Shown in pieces: positions 11,271 to 20,362 of a stretch of DNA of 27,319 bases. This stretch comes from Candidatus Bipolaricaulota bacterium (GTDB lineage Bacteria > Bipolaricaulota > Bipolaricaulia > Bipolaricaulales > Bipolaricaulaceae). The first letter of the stretch is position 1. Every line of letters begins with the position of its first letter. The translations under genes were made by a program, and so were the position numbers. The stretch spans positions 1 through 27,319 of the forward strand of contig JAGGWU010000187.1 of assembly GCA_021163465.1 (NCBI GenBank). Direction: 5' to 3'. Below the pieces are notes generated by a model. The model saw only the letters and a list, made by a program, of their open reading frames with translations. It was not told the DNA's origin and made no database searches.

Positions 11271-11701
11271 AGGCCCGGGAGCTCATGCGGCGCGATCTCA
11301 CCTCGGTGGAGCCCGATACCTTGATCCACGAGGCCATTTACCTCATGGAGCAGGCGGGGCTTTCCACCCTCCCGGTGGTGGACGAGGAGGGGAAGTTGGT
11401 AGGGGTTATCACCGAGCACGACCTCATCCACGCCGCCCTTCCCGAGTACTTCGAGATGCTCCACTCGATCTCTTTTCTCCCCAATTTGAACCAGGTCCAG
11501 AAGCGCCTCAGGGAGATGGCGTTCAAGCCCGTCTCCGATTACATGAAGGAGGCCCTCTCGGTACGCCTGGACGACGAAGACCTCCACATCGCGGACCTCC
11601 TCATCCGCAAGCGCCTGAAGCAGATCCCGGTGGTGGACGAGGAGGGGAAGCTGGTGGGGGTCATCCGCCGTATCGATATCCTTTCGCGCCTCGTGCGCTG
11701 A
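11267..11701 (+). CDS. Stand-alone tandem CBS domain protein
   Basis: Two CBS repeats, each with PVVDEEGKLVGVI. GTG 11267 overlaps the kinase stop (GTGA); the stop overlaps the dinG ATG (TGATG). Confidence 0.9.
   Translation: MKARELMRRDLTSVEPDTLIHEAIYLMEQAGLSTLPVVDEEGKLVGVITEHDLIHAALPEYFEMLHSISFLPNLNQVQKRLREMAFKPVSDYMKEALSVRLDDEDLHIADLLIRKRLKQIPVVDEEGKLVGVIRRIDILSRLVR
11371..11665 (+). repeat. 40-bp direct repeat inside the CBS gene (copies 11371-11410 and 11626-11665)
   Basis: cccggtggtggacgaggaggggaag(t/c)tggt(a/g)ggggt(t/c)atc; 37/40 identical, and the three differences are synonymous. Confidence 0.85.
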
Positions 11702-14181
11702 TGGAGTTCTTCGCGCTGGACCTCGAGACCACGGGGCTTGATCCCCGGAAGGACGAGATCCTGGAGATCGCTTGGGTCCGGTTCTTGGAAGGAAGGCCCC
11801 GAGAGCGCTTTCAAACCTTGGTGCGTGTCGCCTTCCTCCCCAAGGAGGTCGAGGTCCTCACCGGGATCTCCCCGGAACGGCTCCGGCGGGCACCACCGCT
11901 TCCCGAGGTGCTGCCCGGGGTCCTCGGGAGGCTGGCGGGCAAGGTGGTGGTGGCCCACAACGCCCCCTTCGACCGCGCCTTCCTCCAACACGCCGCGGCC
12001 CGGTTGGGCCTTGAGCTTCCGGAGATCCACTGGGTGGACACCCTGGCCATCTCCCGGGCCATCTGGCCGGAGCGGGAAAGCCACGCCCTGCCCGCCTTGA
12101 GGGAGGTCTTGGGGCTTGAGGACCGAGAGGCCCACCGGGCCCTTCCCGACGCCGAGGCCACCGGCTACCTCTTCCTCGAGGAGCTCGCCGCCTTCCCCTA
12201 TCTTCCCGAGCCCACCCGAGCCTTCATCCTCCGCGGGGTGCCGCCCCCGGCCCGGGAACTCCTCGCGGCGGGGCGCAAGGAAGGGGGAAGGGAAAAAACC
12301 GTGCTCGAGGAGGTCTTTTCCCTCCTTTCCCGGAAGATCCCCGGATTCCAGCTGCGGAAGGCCCAACTCGGTTATGCCGCTTGGGTCGAACGGGCCCTAA
12401 GGGAAGGGGGGGTCTATCTTCTGGAGGCCGGCCCGGGAACGGGCAAGACTTATGGGTACCTCGTTCCGCTCCTTTTGGCCCCGGAGGGCCGCGCCGTGAT
12501 ATCCACCCGCACCAAAGCCCTACAGGACCAGCTTTGGCACCGGGATCTCCCGGCCCTTCGGGAAGCCCTGCGGGCCGACGTCCGGGTCGCCCTCCTGAAA
12601 GGCTTCGACAACTACCTCTGCCCCTGGGCCTTGGAGCGGGAAGGGGGTCTCTTTTCGGGGCCCCTCAGGAAGCGGATCCGGGAGTGCCTTTCCGAGGTAG
12701 AAAACCCCGAGGTGGGGGAACTCTATAAGATCTTGGGCTTCGATCCCGAGGCCCGTGCCCTGGTGGAGCGGATCCGAGCCCGCCCCCACCGCTGTCTGGG
12801 AAGGGAGTGTCCCTTCCTTTCCCGCTGTCCCCCCCGCCGCGCGCGAAGATCCGCTCAGGAGGCCGAGATCGTGGTGGTGAACCACTCGCTCCTCGTCGCC
12901 GATTTCCTCGCGGGGGGCGGGATATTGGGGGAGTACGAGGTCCTCATCGCCGACGAGGCCCACTCCCTCCCCAAGGCATTCGAGGAGGGCCTCACGCGAT
13001 CCATCTCCCCCGCCGATGTGGCCGCGCTCCTGGAGGAGATCGAGGCGATGCTCCCTCAACTCGTTCCCCGGAGGGAGCTGCGAGGGGTCTGGGCCGAGCT
13101 GCGCCGGCTCCGCGAGCGCCTCCACGCCCTCCTCCCCGATGAGCCCGCACCTTACTCCCGCAGGGAGGGGCTGCGCTTCCTCTCCGCGGCCCAGGAACTC
13201 ATCTGGAAGTTGGTGGCACTCAAGGGGGCCCTGGAAGAGGGGCTGTCCGCGCTGGAGGGGGAAGAAAAAGGGATGGCCTCCGGGGAGATCGCCGCCCTCG
13301 AGAACTTGGTTTCCGAGATGGAGTACGTGTTGGCCGCTGAGGGCGAGGAGGTATTCTGGAGCGAGAAGGACCCGGACATCCGGTTCTACGCCACCCCCTT
13401 AGAGTTCGGCGACCGCCTCGCCACGGATTTCTGGGGGCGGATACGTGCCGCGATCCTCACCTCGGCCACCCTTTCGGTGGGGGGAAGGGTCGATTTCCTG
13501 GTGCGGGAGCTCGGGCTCGGGAATGCCATCCACCGCGTCTTCCCCGCCCAAGAAAAGGAGCGTCGGGGGCGCGTGTTCCTCTTGGAGTTCTTCCCCGGAC
13601 CCAATGAGGGCGGTTACGTTTCGGCCCTGGCGCGGCTCCTTTCGGAACTTCGGGAGAGGTTCCGGCGCAAGATCATGGTGCTTTTCACCTCTCGGAAGAT
13701 GCTGCGGGCGGTACGGGAAAGGCTGCCCCAGGAGGGGGTGATATCCCAGTTGGATTGGGGCGATGCCGCACAGGCGGTGGAGGCCTTCCGGGCAATGGAT
13801 GCCCCCGCGATCCTGTTGGGATTGGACAGCCTCTGGGAGGGAGTCGACTTCCCCGGGGAGGAGCTGGAGATCCTGGTGGTGGCCCGACTCCCCTTCCCCA
13901 ATCCCGCCGATCCCCTGATAAAGGCCAAGGAGGAGAGGCTCCGCGCCCAAGGGCTTGACCCTTTCCGTGCCCTTTACCTTCCCCGGGCCGTCCTCAAGCT
14001 GGCCCAGGGGGTGGGACGTCTCCTCCGTACCCCCGAGGACAGGGGCGCCGTGATCGTGGCCGACCCCCGTATCGTTGCCCGCCCCTACGGCGAGGTCTTC
14101 CGGGCCAAACTCACCCTCCCCACAAGGACGGTGGGGGACCTGGAGGAGCTCCTCTTTGCCCTCGAGGAGGTCTTCTCATAA
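11701..14181 (+). CDS. dinG: DEDDh 3'-5' exonuclease fused to a DinG/XPD-family helicase with an Fe-S motif
   Basis: ALDLETTG, HNAPFD, HRALPDA (DnaQ-like); EAGPGTGKT, STRTKALQDQL, VVNHSLL, DEAH, LTSATL, LWEGVDFPG, RLPFP, QGVGRLLR; cysteines YLC...CLGRECPFLSRC. Confidence 0.9.
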   Translation: MEFFALDLETTGLDPRKDEILEIAWVRFLEGRPRERFQTLVRVAFLPKEVEVLTGISPERLRRAPPLPEVLPGVLGRLAGKVVVAHNAPFDRAFLQHAAARLGLELPEIHWVDTLAISRAIWPERESHALPALREVLGLEDREAHRALPDAEATGYLFLEELAAFPYLPEPTRAFILRGVPPPARELLAAGRKEGGREKTVLEEVFSLLSRKIPGFQLRKAQLGYAAWVERALREGGVYLLEAGPGTGKTYGYLVPLLLAPEGRAVISTRTKALQDQLWHRDLPALREALRADVRVALLKGFDNYLCPWALEREGGLFSGPLRKRIRECLSEVENPEVGELYKILGFDPEARALVERIRARPHRCLGRECPFLSRCPPRRARRSAQEAEIVVVNHSLLVADFLAGGGILGEYEVLIADEAHSLPKAFEEGLTRSISPADVAALLEEIEAMLPQLVPRRELRGVWAELRRLRERLHALLPDEPAPYSRREGLRFLSAAQELIWKLVALKGALEEGLSALEGEEKGMASGEIAALENLVSEMEYVLAAEGEEVFWSEKDPDIRFYATPLEFGDRLATDFWGRIRAAILTSATLSVGGRVDFLVRELGLGNAIHRVFPAQEKERRGRVFLLEFFPGPNEGGYVSALARLLSELRERFRRKIMVLFTSRKMLRAVRERLPQEGVISQLDWGDAAQAVEAFRAMDAPAILLGLDSLWEGVDFPGEELEILVVARLPFPNPADPLIKAKEERLRAQGLDPFRALYLPRAVLKLAQGVGRLLRTPEDRGAVIVADPRIVARPYGEVFRAKLTLPTRTVGDLEELLFALEEVFS

Positions 14182-14193
14182 CCTAATACCACC

Positions 14194-15864
14194 ATGTTCG
14201 TACGCTGGTCGAGGTACTTTTTGCCCACCCGCAAAGATGCGCCGGCTGAGGCGTCCCCTCGGTTGAGATTGATGCTTCGGGCAGGTCTCATCCGGCGGTT
14301 GGAACCGGGCCTTTACGGGTTCCTCCCCTTGGGATGTCGCGCCCTGGAAAAAATCGAGCGGATCGTGAGGGAAGAGATGACGGAACTCGGGGCCCTGGAG
14401 ATCCGACTCCCCCGCCTTCGGCCGGCCGCCCGTGGGAACGGGCTCGCGTCAAAGGATCTCCACCTCACAGACGGAAAGGGTCGGCGGTTCGGGCTTGGCT
14501 CAAGCCACGCTTCGGCGGCGATCTCCCTTATCGGTGGAGATGTAAACTCCTGGCGTGACCTCCCGTTGCTCTTTTGTTGCGAAGGCAGTGGATACCGGGA
14601 CACGGTCGGCTCCTGGGCACGGGAGTTCCCCTTGTACGAAGCCTTCGGCTTCTTCGCGGATCAAGGTTCGCGGGAGGAAACCCACCGATACATGCTCCGT
14701 GCCTATTCCCGGGTGTTGGCCCGATGCGGGCTTGGGTTCAGGACCGCAGAGGTACCCAATGAGGCCTCGGAGGATGGAAGTTCCCTTGCGGTTGTGGTTT
14801 TTGAGGAGGAGGGCGATGAGGAGATCGCTTGGTGTACTTCCTGCGGATACGCTGCGAGCCGGTGTCTCGCCGACGTAGGATCCCCCGGCCCACCTCCCGG
14901 TACGGAAAAGGCCCTGGAGCTCGTGGAGACTCCAGGAGTGCGTACGGTAGAGGGGTTGGTGGAGTTCCTCGGAGTGAGCCCGGCCCAGGTGGTGAAGACC
15001 TTCCTTTATGTGGGGAAAAGGGGGACTGTGGGGGTTCTCGTGCGGGGCGACCACGAGCTGGAAGAGGAGAAGCTCCGCCGGGCTTTGGGGGATCGTAGCT
15101 TGCGGCGAGTGGACGATCCCGACGAGGCACAGGCCATCGCCGGGGCTCCCTTCGGATTCCTCGGCCCCGTTGGTCTTTCGGTCCCTATTTGGGCGGACAA
15201 GGCGGTGCGGGATATCCCGGCCGCGGTGGTGGGCGGCAATCGGGAAGGGTATCACTACGTGGGCGCTAAGGCGGGCCGCGACTTCCGGGTGGAAGGGTTC
15301 CTCGACCTCCGCCGTGTCCGCGAGGGCGACCCCTGTGGCAGGTGTGGTGCCCCCCTGCGGATCAGGAAGGGGATCAGGGTGGCCGAGCTCCTTCGAATGG
15401 GGGCAGCGGGGCTCACCTTCTCGGATCGGGATGGCCGGGTGAAGCCCGTCCTGGCGGGGCAGTATTCCCTGGAGCTTCACCGGCTTCTGGAGGCAGTGGT
15501 GGAAAAGCATCATGACGACTTCGGGATCGTCTGGCCCGTGGAGATCGCTCCCTTCCACGTGGTGATCGCGGTCTTGCGACCAGACGTTCCCGAACAGATA
15601 AGGGTTGCCGAGCGGATGGCCTCCGCTTTGGGAGCCTCCGGCCTCGATGTGCTCCTCGATGACCGCGACCGCTCCCCGGGGGAGAAGTTCCACGACGCGA
15701 AGCTCATCGGGGCTCCGGTGATGTTGGTGGTGGGACATAGAGCCCTAAAGAGGGGGGAGATAGAGGCAGAGCGGCGCTGGGACGGAGCACGGGCCTCCTT
15801 TCCCGCCGAACCAACCGAGGTGCTCCATGGGGTATGGGGCCTTCTGCGCGCCGAGCGCGGTTGA
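14194..15864 (+). CDS. proS: Bacterial-type prolyl-tRNA synthetase homologue with a degenerate aminoacylation site and conserved INS editing and anticodon-binding domains
   Basis: LMLRAGLIRRLEPGLYGFLPLG, IVREEM (motif 1 region); VVKT, VRGDHEL, GFLGPV, GGN..GYHY (INS); GIVWPVEIAPFHV, VLLDDR..PGEKFHDAKLIGAP (anticodon domain). TxE loop, motif 2 loop and motif 3 are strongly altered (see findings). Confidence 0.85.
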   Translation: MFVRWSRYFLPTRKDAPAEASPRLRLMLRAGLIRRLEPGLYGFLPLGCRALEKIERIVREEMTELGALEIRLPRLRPAARGNGLASKDLHLTDGKGRRFGLGSSHASAAISLIGGDVNSWRDLPLLFCCEGSGYRDTVGSWAREFPLYEAFGFFADQGSREETHRYMLRAYSRVLARCGLGFRTAEVPNEASEDGSSLAVVVFEEEGDEEIAWCTSCGYAASRCLADVGSPGPPPGTEKALELVETPGVRTVEGLVEFLGVSPAQVVKTFLYVGKRGTVGVLVRGDHELEEEKLRRALGDRSLRRVDDPDEAQAIAGAPFGFLGPVGLSVPIWADKAVRDIPAAVVGGNREGYHYVGAKAGRDFRVEGFLDLRRVREGDPCGRCGAPLRIRKGIRVAELLRMGAAGLTFSDRDGRVKPVLAGQYSLELHRLLEAVVEKHHDDFGIVWPVEIAPFHVVIAVLRPDVPEQIRVAERMASALGASGLDVLLDDRDRSPGEKFHDAKLIGAPVMLVVGHRALKRGEIEAERRWDGARASFPAEPTEVLHGVWGLLRAERG

Positions 15865-18274: not shown

Positions 18275-19121
18275 AGAGCTTTTGGTGATAATCCTGGCGC
18301 TGGTCCTCTTGCCCCTGGCGGTGGTGGGTGTCCTCGACGTCCCTTCCGAGCCGCCCCAGAAAGACCTGGGTGGCCCGTTGGGTATCTCGCCCGCCCAACC
18401 CTTCACCACCTACCGGGTGCGGCCGGGGGACACCCTCGCGGGCCTCTCCCGTCGCTACGGTATCCCAATCGAGTACATCCAGGCCAGCAATTACATCGCC
18501 GATCCCAAGGAGCTCCGGGCTGGATCGGTGATCGTGCTTCCCCGGGGAGGGGTCGTTCACGTGGTGAAGGAGGGGCAGACCTTAAGCGATATCGCCGCGG
18601 CTTACGGCGTAAGCGAGTTCGACATCATCGCCGCCAACGATCTCGCGGGGTTGCCGCTTCCGGGGGATAAGCTCCTCATTCCACACCCTGCTTCCATCCC
18701 CTGGCTGGAGGCATTGAAGCTCGGTTGGCGCCCCGATTCCCGCTTTATCTGGCCCCTACGGGGTCGGCTCACCTCCCTCTTCGGCCCCCGGATACATCCC
18801 ATCTTCGGCACCCCAGATTTCCATACCGGGATTGACTTCGCTGTGCCCGAGGGAACGGAGGTACACGCCGCCGCCGCGGGAAAGGTGAGCTTCGCCGGGG
18901 AGCGGGGCGGATACGGCCTTTTGGTGGTGGTGGAGCATGGGGACGGCTTTTCCACTTACTATGCCCACCTTTCGCGTATCCTGGTGGAAGCGGGACAGTT
19001 CGTGGAACAGGGACAGGTGATCGCCCTATCCGGCAATACCGGCATCTCCACCGGGCCACACCTGCACTTCGAGATCCGCCGCCACGGGAAGCCCGTGGAT
19101 CCCCTGCCGTGGCTTCCGTGA
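18267..19121 (+). CDS. LysM x2 plus M23 family metallopeptidase (peptidoglycan endopeptidase) with N-terminal membrane or signal segment
   Basis: Hydrophobic N-terminus; YRVRPGDTL and HVVKEGQTL LysM repeats; HTGIDF (HxxxD), YAHL, STGPHLHFE (HxH). Confidence 0.92.
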   Translation: MSKELLVIILALVLLPLAVVGVLDVPSEPPQKDLGGPLGISPAQPFTTYRVRPGDTLAGLSRRYGIPIEYIQASNYIADPKELRAGSVIVLPRGGVVHVVKEGQTLSDIAAAYGVSEFDIIAANDLAGLPLPGDKLLIPHPASIPWLEALKLGWRPDSRFIWPLRGRLTSLFGPRIHPIFGTPDFHTGIDFAVPEGTEVHAAAAGKVSFAGERGGYGLLVVVEHGDGFSTYYAHLSRILVEAGQFVEQGQVIALSGNTGISTGPHLHFEIRRHGKPVDPLPWLP

Positions 19122-20362
19122 TGGTCATCCGGGGCGGCCGACCCCTTTCGGGTCGGGTGGAGGTCTCCGGGGCCAAGAACGCCGTCCTCCCCGCCATCGT
19201 GGCCTCCCTCCTCATCGATGAACCACTGACGATCGGAAACGTCCCCGACCTCAGGGATGTGGAGACCCAACTGGCCTTGGTAGAGGCCCTGGGCAAAGCG
19301 ATAAGCCGGGATGGGGATACCCTCGTCATAACGGGCGAGGCTTCGCGCGCGGAGGCCCCGGAGGAGGTGGTCTCCAGGATGCGGGCCTCCTTCCTTTGTC
19401 TCGGTCCGCTCCTTGCCCGCTTCGGGGAGGCCCACGTGCCCCTCCCCGGCGGATGCGTCATCGGGGCCCGTCCGGTGGACCTGCACCTTGAGGGGCTGCG
19501 GAGGCTGGGGGCGGAGGTGGAGGTGTGCGAGGGGGTGGTGCACGCCCGCGGGAGGCTCCACGGGGGCGAGGTCTGGCTGCGTTATCCTTCCGTGGGCGCG
19601 ACGGAACAGCTGCTCCTCGCGGGGGCGGTGATACCCGAGCCGGTGGAGGTGGTTAATCCGGCGCGGGAGCCGGAGGTGATGGACTTGGCGCGGCTCCTCT
19701 CGGCCATGGGGGCCGAGATCTCCTTCTCCGAGGACAGGATCACGATCCAAGGGGGGAAATTGCGGGGCACGGGGCACCATGTGATACCCGACAGGATCGA
19801 GGCCGGGACGTATCTCCTCGCGGGGGCGATCACCGGGGGAGAGGTGGAAGTGGCGGGCGCCCGTCCGGAACACCTCACCGCCCTCTTGGTCAAGCTGGAG
19901 GAATGTGGCGTTGGGATCGCTGTTGAGGGGCGGACCATCTGCCTGAAGGCCCGGGTCCCCTGGTCCGGGGTGGAGGTGGAGACCGCCCCCTATCCCGGCT
20001 TTCCCACAGACCTCCAGCCCCAGTTCACATCTTTCCTTGCGCTTGCCCGGGGGCGGAGCGTGATCTGGGAGCGGGTGTTCGAATCCCGGTTCGGGCACGT
20101 GGGGGAGCTCCTGAGGATGGGGGCCCGAATCACCCTCCAGGGACAGGCCATCCTCATCGAGGGGGTGGAGGGCTTGCGGGGGGCGGAGGTGGTGGCCACC
20201 GATATCCGCGCCGGGGCCGCGTTGGTGCTGGCGGGCCTCGCCGCTCACGGGGAAACCAGGATAAACGGACTGGACCACCTGCGACGGGGATATGAGAATA
20301 TAGAGGGGAAGCTAGCCCAACTCGGGGCGGAGGTATGGGTAGAGGAACTCAACGTTACTTGA
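19118..20362 (+). CDS. murA: UDP-N-acetylglucosamine 1-carboxyvinyltransferase
   Basis: SGAKNA, MRAS, LPGGCVIGARPVDLH (active-site Cys present), PSVGATE, DRIEAGT, PGFPTDLQPQ, FESRF, TDIRAGA, RGYE. Start is GTG 19118 or ATG 19121. Confidence 0.96.
   Translation: MMVIRGGRPLSGRVEVSGAKNAVLPAIVASLLIDEPLTIGNVPDLRDVETQLALVEALGKAISRDGDTLVITGEASRAEAPEEVVSRMRASFLCLGPLLARFGEAHVPLPGGCVIGARPVDLHLEGLRRLGAEVEVCEGVVHARGRLHGGEVWLRYPSVGATEQLLLAGAVIPEPVEVVNPAREPEVMDLARLLSAMGAEISFSEDRITIQGGKLRGTGHHVIPDRIEAGTYLLAGAITGGEVEVAGARPEHLTALLVKLEECGVGIAVEGRTICLKARVPWSGVEVETAPYPGFPTDLQPQFTSFLALARGRSVIWERVFESRFGHVGELLRMGARITLQGQAILIEGVEGLRGAEVVATDIRAGAALVLAGLAAHGETRINGLDHLRRGYENIEGKLAQLGAEVWVEELNVT

Follow-up and report, generated by a model that had tools for sequence, protein, structure and literature searches.

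Full-length prolyl-tRNA synthetase (ProRS) deacylates pre-formed Ala-tRNA(Pro) in solution (PMC3973320; PMC11295145). Its editing domain, INS, cannot by itself recognize tRNA(Pro), and relies on the reading of G35/G36 by the ProRS anticodon domain (PMC3973320; review PMC11295145). Where ProRS has no INS, Ala-tRNA(Pro) is edited by ProXp-ala (PMC3973320; PMC11295145), which reads the acceptor stem (G72/A73); YbaK depends on a complex with ProRS (PMC11295145). For threonine, crenarchaea split charging and proofreading over two synthetase-derived genes, ThrRS-cat and ThrRS-ed, the latter carrying editing and anticodon-binding domains and acting in trans on the mischarged product of its partner (PMC3592468; PMC11295145). 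Here we describe a gene from a Candidatus Bipolaricaulota genome for which this pair is the closest analogue. The gene lies at 14194-15864 on the forward strand of the window (the whole stretch of DNA analysed, 27,319 nucleotides) and encodes a ProRS-like protein of 556 aa in which the synthetic site is eroded and both INS and the anticodon-binding domain (ABD) are intact. In our preferred reading, which we hold to be reasonably probable, the protein acts in trans as a tRNA(Pro)-specific Ala-tRNA(Pro) deacylase and would be the bacterial ProRS counterpart of crenarchaeal ThrRS-ed.

An earlier prediction for this gene, made from the letters of the window (hereafter the original prediction), had proposed an editing-only pseudo-synthetase and knew of no described full-length case. 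Our search of open-access papers likewise found no full-length editing-only or inactive ProRS, and the protein is probably a previously undescribed relative of ProRS with this character. A match to the term 'ProRS paralog' (PMC9403976) was set aside, as it meant only human versus Plasmodium ProRS.

We aligned the bacterial-type ProRS taken from 24 relatives with that of E. coli K-12; the 24 canonical enzymes share 92 invariant columns. The protein of the window differs at 31 of the 64 catalytic columns and at none of the 28 in INS and ABD (Fisher p = 6.6e-7), and the canonical enzymes, left out one at a time as controls, show 0-3 changed columns each. Compared with the 15 nearest canonical sisters, 78/161 catalytic columns are changed versus 7/119 in INS and ABD (p = 7e-16). 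The erosion is thus domain-selective, as originally proposed, and restricted to the synthetic site.

The decay is centred on the proline loop, motif 2, the GGxxSHEF strand and motif 3. The proline loop GPTHEE reads GSSHAS (aa 102-107, nt 14497-14514), GGxxSHEF has become EDGSSLAV (in the stretch EASEDGSSLAV, nt 14761-14793), GIEVGHIF has become GIRVAELL (in GIRVAELLRMG, nt 15370-15402) and motif 3, MGCYGIGVxR, reads AGQYSLELHR (nt 15454-15483); these replacements are exactly those listed in the original prediction. The motif-2 remnant it described, GYRDTVGSWAREFPLYE (aa 133-149, nt 14590-14640), is also present, with the start at 14590 and not, one codon off, at 14593. Its deleted LWQESGRW segment and shortened motif-2 loop show up, once the protein is aligned to E. 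coli ProRS and the 24 relatives, as a 6-aa deletion at LWxxxGRW and a 5-aa deletion in the loop. A further deletion of 5 aa removes TKYSE from the C-terminal part of the class II core.

In the catalytic part N-terminal to INS, 22 of the 49 invariant columns are changed, including T109S, E111A, R144G, R151W, K158Y, D159E, G203E, G204D, E209A and F210V (E. coli numbering). The eroded synthetic-site region comprises aa 78-213 (14425..14832, +), and just 26-46% of the columns invariant among the 15 nearest canonical sisters are kept over aa 76-200. The preceding segment, aa 1-77 (14194..14424, +), is still conserved, with 64% of these columns kept over aa 1-25, 88% over aa 26-50 and 100% over aa 51-75; both motif-1 prolines (P73, P77) are invariant. 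This is the motif-1 region, which in class II synthetases forms the dimer interface, and the protein may still dimerise. In the eroded C-terminal part of the core (aa 393-445, 15370..15528, +), nine of 15 invariant columns are affected (E410R, G412A, F415L, Y421-, S422-, M441A, G445S, I446L and G447E).

INS (aa 214-392, 14833..15369, +) has no change at its 17 invariant columns, and the HGTP-type ABD (aa 446-556, 15529..15864, +) none at its 11. Relative to the 15 nearest sisters, INS differs at 5/77 columns, all conservatively and none at a signature residue, and ABD at 2/42. The signatures that the original prediction reported as retained were all found: VVKT (K268, equivalent to E. coli K279), RGDHE, the GXXXP loop GFLGP (321-325) and YHY (H354, equivalent to E. 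coli H369) in INS, and GIVWP, IAPF and LDDR in ABD. The pocket leucine is kept as well (L255, equivalent to E. coli L266), so that the protein has the lysine, GXXXP loop, gatekeeper histidine and pocket leucine that characterize deacylases of the INS superfamily; the roles of K279, L266 and H369 have been described (PMC3973320; bioRxiv 10.1101/2020.09.11.293571). Retention of ABD and of the connecting scaffold is explained by the need of INS for the anticodon domain in recognizing tRNA(Pro).

Two CxxC pairs flank INS, C214/C217 (nt 14833-14844) and C381/C384 (nt 15334-15345). They are absent in E. coli and near-invariant in the ProRS of the group, eroded and canonical, and resemble a zinc knuckle placed where INS hinges on the core.

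Profile searches give the same division. PF04073 (Pfam tRNA_edit) matches aa 246-360 (E = 3e-21) and PF03129 (Pfam HGTP_anticodon) aa 456-532 (E = 1e-13). TIGR00409, the NCBIfam model of bacterial-type ProRS, is just exceeded (324 bits; cut-off, 306.7), PRK09194 stays far under its cut-off (398 versus 558 bits) and so does the class II core PF00587 (19.2 versus 29.3 bits). The closest solved structure is E. faecalis ProRS (2j3l), with which the protein aligns end to end (E = 3.5e-92). The domain order is that of the bacterial-type enzymes (ProRS-B), with INS between motifs 2 and 3 and an HGTP anticodon-binding domain at the C-terminus; motifs 2 and 3 of class II and the residues that contact proline and ATP in ProRS-B are no longer intact. 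The frame is open and stop-free throughout, in agreement with the original prediction, and the start-codon context matches that of canonical orthologues.

In the following, G000 denotes the genome that contains the window and G001 that of a sister species. Between the two (dS ∼ 0.7), dN/dS of the eroded gene is 0.28 for the catalytic domain, 0.20 for INS and 0.18 for ABD, compared with 0.06, 0.09 and 0.13 for canonical pairs of comparable dS. Purifying selection acts on every domain and is relaxed approximately 5-fold in the catalytic domain and at most 2-fold in INS and ABD. Along the path from G000 to G001, neutrality would predict ∼ 38 nonsense hits, and the probability of observing none is 2e-17. 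A 99%-identical strain from another sample differs by 19 single-nucleotide polymorphisms (SNPs) in the ORF, 17 synonymous and two non-synonymous, with zero indels (p = 8e-7).

The protein database contains two further eroded lineages, P0004 (536 aa) and P0015 (538 aa), whose catalytic deletions are larger and of another kind: both are without motif 2, and P0015 is without the proline loop, while their INS and ABD are near-identical. The frame is open in all four eroded lineages (P0001, P0003, P0004 and P0015). Pairwise identities within the eroded clade are 0.48 for the catalytic domain, 0.78 for INS and 0.74 for ABD; the corresponding values for the canonical sisters are 0.85, 0.78 and 0.71. 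In a tree of INS and ABD the eroded forms cluster (SH-aLRT 99 for three of them, 88 for four) with ordinary branch lengths; P0015 has no firm place in a larger tree, so that erosion in the G000 clade started once or twice.

These data bear on whether the gene, displaced by an archaeal-type ProRS, is functionless and in the process of being lost, with INS and ABD simply not yet decayed. Some members of the family are indeed without any bacterial-type gene, and one congener (G005, see below) shows what could be an early, mild stage of erosion. Nevertheless, the erosion is older than the divergence of at least three to four lineages that are now 57-73% identical and still have an open frame; dN/dS is 0.18-0.28 across the domains; the strain variant is dominated by synonymous changes; the many nonsense hits expected under neutrality are missing; INS and ABD evolve at the rates of working enzymes; and the pattern recurs independently. 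We strongly disfavour this explanation and consider it extremely improbable. None of the marks of a pseudogene (stops or frameshifts, dN/dS near 1, lack of cross-species conservation) was found, and a pseudogene is rejected by dN/dS, the strain SNPs and the open-frame probability. The original prediction had named a young pseudogene, with orthologues frameshifted or absent in relatives, as the outcome that would speak against it; they are neither.

Could the protein instead be a divergent but working prolyl-tRNA synthetase? Its TIGR00409 score is above the cut-off, the motif-2 arginine (R140) and the equivalent of the motif-3 arginine (R450) are retained in G000 and G001, and the full-length fold appears to be preserved in a structural model (see below). 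Set against this are the loss of almost half of the catalytic invariants, including the Thr and Glu of the proline loop, the second motif-2 arginine, R151 (now Trp), the Glu and Phe of SHEF and motif-3 glycines replaced by Glu or Ser, together with the shorter motif-2 loop, the PF00587 and PRK09194 scores under their cut-offs and a catalytic domain that evolves about five times faster than in canonical enzymes. Moreover, P0004 and P0015 have dropped motif 2 or the proline loop entirely and kept INS and ABD. We therefore regard a working synthetase as very unlikely, and the protein has most likely lost the ability to charge tRNA(Pro).

The window corresponds to contig C186 in a metagenome-assembled genome of 1.40 Mb (MAG; 187 contigs, 84.7% complete), which the names borne by homologous proteins assign to Bipolaricaulota/Acetothermia. 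The sequence of the window was found in ∼ 20 sequencing runs belonging to 15 studies, for the most part metagenomes of hydrothermal vents. G000 also contains an archaeal/eukaryote-type proS, the second synthetase anticipated by the original prediction. The gene is truncated by a contig end (C42:12692-13696) and matches model positions 140-475 of TIGR00408 with 382 bits and canonical motifs; its counterpart in G001 is complete (490 aa; 596 bits, above the cut-off), and another is present in G005. This enzyme is INS-less, so that G000, G001 and G005 each hold a same-genome partner for proline without an editing domain, as in a split synthetase. Between G000 and G001 the archaeal-type ProRS is 96% identical and the eroded protein 73%; the slow evolution of the former is consistent with a role as the working synthetase. 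The archaeal-type enzymes of G000 and G001 nest among those of the rest of the family. In these two genomes (∼ 85-88% complete) no PF04073 domain was detected outside the eroded gene, and no ProX or YbaK gene. Three tRNA(Pro) genes bear the bacterial identity elements C1:G72 and A73.

The family, and genomes outside it, share the gene order DinG-like exonuclease-helicase, proS, GT2 glycosyltransferase, rpiB. This makes the eroded gene a positional orthologue of the resident proS and not an extra copy, and the term 'paralogue' used in the original prediction does not apply. A stray duplicate or horizontally acquired paralogue in G000 was rejected on the same synteny with the single proS of relatives and because the gene nests in the family's proS clade. 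Together, profiles, 2j3l, synteny and the structural model identify the whole ORF as a pseudo-synthetase derived from bacterial-type proS. The upstream gene (11701-14181, +) ends 12 nt before the proS start and is syntenic across the family; its 826-aa product joins an RNase T-type exonuclease domain, at the N-terminus, to a DinG-type helicase (PF00929, PF00270, PF13307). Elsewhere in the window, a 439-aa ORF (18959-20278, -) has coding-like GC3 and zero Pfam matches at E <= 1e-5.

Among the genomes aligned, strong erosion with the same two deletions is confined to G000 and G001, both encoding proteins of ∼ 555 aa. The motifs are fully canonical in three members of the same genus (G002-G004) and in representatives of neighbouring genera (G015, G013 and G007), and none of these six yielded an archaeal-type ProRS. 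Among the 50 species representatives of the family, some genomes have the bacterial-type ProRS only, some the archaeal-type only and some both, which suggests that the ancestor had the two types and that differential loss came afterwards.

G005, which belongs to the same genus and also has the archaeal-type enzyme, has a mildly damaged bacterial-type ProRS (L061 and L032, on G005:C113 and C67; protein P0010), with T109I, D141G, E154R, D159A, G447D and other changes and a deletion of 4 aa. Inclusion of G005 in the same erosion event has no support from the tree, which places the protein outside the eroded clade, and the changes are different and milder; it may represent an independent early stage of erosion.

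The pattern recurs in other lineages, which the original prediction had not foreseen. G026 belongs to another family of the class. Besides a canonical ProRS it encodes a second bacterial-type copy (G026b; L062:552-2195, - strand, corresponding to G026:C3:42366-43937) that is changed at 43/64 catalytic, 3/17 INS and 0/11 ABD invariant columns. The G026b-like family (proteins P0122-P0133) comprises at least 11 protein clusters of 43-100% identity, one of them annotated as a hypothetical protein of Bipolaricaulota, and groups with Patescibacteria-type ProRS on INS and ABD columns. Its identities are 0.37 (catalytic), 0.66 (INS) and 0.52 (ABD), versus 0.70, 0.60 and 0.43 for canonical enzymes. Both the motif-2 and the motif-3 arginines are lost, K279 and H369 are kept, and P340V is fixed in the GXXXP loop. 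Four metagenomic proteins (P0144, P0187, P0191 and P0214) have 33-47 of the 64 catalytic invariants changed, with INS and ABD kept; they occupy separate positions in the tree, which suggests additional independent origins. A tree of INS and ABD requires ∼ 6 state changes, and judging from these sequences an eroded synthetic site combined with conserved INS and ABD has evidently evolved repeatedly.

How might such a protein arise and work? We propose that a vertically inherited bacterial-type proS resided in a Bipolaricaulota (Acetothermia) lineage that also carried the INS-less archaeal/eukaryote-type ProRS. Prolylation would have passed to the archaeal-type enzyme, after which the resident protein's aminoacylation site would have decayed. 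With its synthetic function redundant and editing kept, the adenylate and proline pockets would have been free to do so, and the proline loop, the motif-2 loop, the adenylate-binding strands and the motif-3 glycines would have been lost. Selection would have retained INS, ABD and enough of the class II scaffold (the motif-1 region and the beta-core) to hold both in native geometry. In the present-day protein, the anticodon domain would bind tRNA(Pro) via G35/G36 and present its 3' end to INS, where the K268/H354/GFLGP pocket would hydrolyse Ala-tRNA(Pro) released by the archaeal-type ProRS. The protein would thus be a trans-acting, anticodon-directed, tRNA(Pro)-specific proofreader ('ProRS-ed').

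Each of the checks suggested in the original prediction that could be made in silico, the per-domain dN/dS comparison among them, supported it. Several observations nevertheless weigh against the proofreader. With R140 and R450 kept, residual nucleotide binding by the G000 and G001 proteins may be possible. The AF2 model superposes on 2j3l with a TM of 0.88 (Foldseek) and has a pLDDT of 90 and a pTM of 0.85, with low confidence over the eroded loops only (pLDDT 48-70 at aa 71-110 and 61-76 at aa 131-150), but it leans on an alignment made up mostly of canonical ProRS and shows only that the sequence does not conflict with the fold. Two metatranscriptome runs contain the locus and give a single 7-kb contig that shares all 37 differences with the DNA contig from the same sample, so that RNA and carried-over DNA are indistinguishable. 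G000 is an 85%-complete MAG, and a free-standing editor or a further proS may be among its unassembled parts. G016 and several more distant relatives hold both types of ProRS with intact motifs; co-occurrence therefore does not force erosion. Seven archaeal-type-only members of the same family (G006, G008, G012, G014, G018, G020 and G023) have no PF04073 domain (INS/YbaK/ProX), indicating that trans-editing is dispensable in close kin. This was not foreseen in the original prediction and weakens the argument from a need for editing; the idea that editing is indispensable once ProRS is without INS was dropped as unsupported. Finally, the eroded copy of G026 shares its contig with a canonical INS-bearing ProRS. 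Replacement of a missing INS fails as a rationale in that genome, and the role of the G026b-like family may differ.

The last two points also favour an alternative in which the protein has a tRNA(Pro)-dependent role other than Ala editing, either in hydrolysing another mischarged product, be it Cys-, Ser- or Abu-tRNA(Pro) or indeed Pro-tRNA(Pro), or as a non-catalytic tRNA(Pro) chaperone, sequestering factor or regulator. Archaeal-type-only relatives need no Ala editing, and P340V together with a coexisting INS-bearing ProRS hints at a different job for the G026b-like proteins. In addition, selection on INS and ABD shows function but not substrate, and specificities within the INS superfamily differ widely (PMC11295145). 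However, the INS of the G000 clade is indistinguishable from that of its canonical sisters, with signature residues untouched, so that a change of specificity would be without support in the sequence, and pure RNA binding would not need a conserved hydrolytic pocket. We regard such a role as unlikely, though worth keeping in mind, and retain Ala-tRNA(Pro) deacylation in trans as the preferred function of the protein.

A broader proposal is that full-length 'ProRS-ed' proteins form a recurrent and unrecognised class of trans-editing factors that select tRNA(Pro) by its anticodon, in contrast to every single-domain INS homologue known, and have arisen independently in the G000 clade, the G026b-like family, P0144, P0187/P0191 and P0214. 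The G000 clade would then represent a two-gene split synthetase with a xenologous archaeal-type ProRS, in the manner of ThrRS-cat and ThrRS-ed. For us, the arguments for and against this generalization are evenly balanced.

If the deacylase reading is true, a full-length ProRS minus its synthetic site would solve the trans-editing of tRNA(Pro) in a new way. It would also provide a natural separation-of-function mutant with which to test whether, as published, INS needs ABD and class II scaffold geometry to select tRNA. A displaced resident synthetase would have a fate besides loss or dual activity: it could be sub-functionalised to serve as a proofreader, as seems to have happened more than once. 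In annotation these genes go under 'proline--tRNA ligase' or 'hypothetical protein', which inflates counts of duplicate synthetases and can mask the true tRNA(Pro)-charging enzyme, for example in the choice of inhibitor targets or in marker-gene phylogenies.

Compared with described systems, the eroded protein is closest in descent to canonical ProRS-B (E. coli ProS, E. faecalis 2J3L), its direct ancestor type, with which it shares domain order, fold, locus, INS and ABD, and from which it differs in its eroded synthetic active site and a class II core below the HMM threshold. The coexistence of bacterial-type and archaeal/eukaryote-type ProRS has a parallel in Bacillus thuringiensis, where ProRS1 (P-type) and ProRS2 (E-type) are both reported to be active synthetases and only bacterial-type tRNA(Pro) is present (PMC11229370); the tRNA(Pro) with C1:G72 and A73 found here extend the likeness, whereas the bacterial-type copy here has an eroded synthetic site. 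ProXp-ala, YbaK, ProXp-x and ProXp-ST1/2 have a homologous hydrolytic domain with the same Lys/GXXXP/His signature. Factors of the ProXp-ala/YbaK type are, however, single-domain proteins (∼ 150-170 aa), whereas the eroded protein has 556 aa, the full ProRS domain order and its own ABD, and would select its tRNA by the anticodon, like cis-editing ProRS. Synthetase paralogues outside canonical aminoacylation include HisZ, LeuRS-I of Sulfolobaceae and ProRSx (PMC9437257; PMC5388404), the last being the sole ProRS entry in a 2022 review of duplicated synthetases (PMC9437257). HisZ and LeuRS-I repurpose the catalytic domain, and ProRSx is still a synthetase, with an altered tRNA target; none of them is described as retaining only editing and anticodon functions.

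ThrRS-ed, too, has a degenerate catalytic domain. The resemblance to the ThrRS pair is one of analogy and not homology: the amino acid is proline and not threonine, the editing folds are unrelated, and the organisms are Bacteria and not Archaea. The partners also differ in origin. Rather than two halves of one ancestor, they are synthetases of different evolutionary types, of which the archaeal-type enzyme would charge tRNA(Pro) and the eroded bacterial-type protein would edit it.

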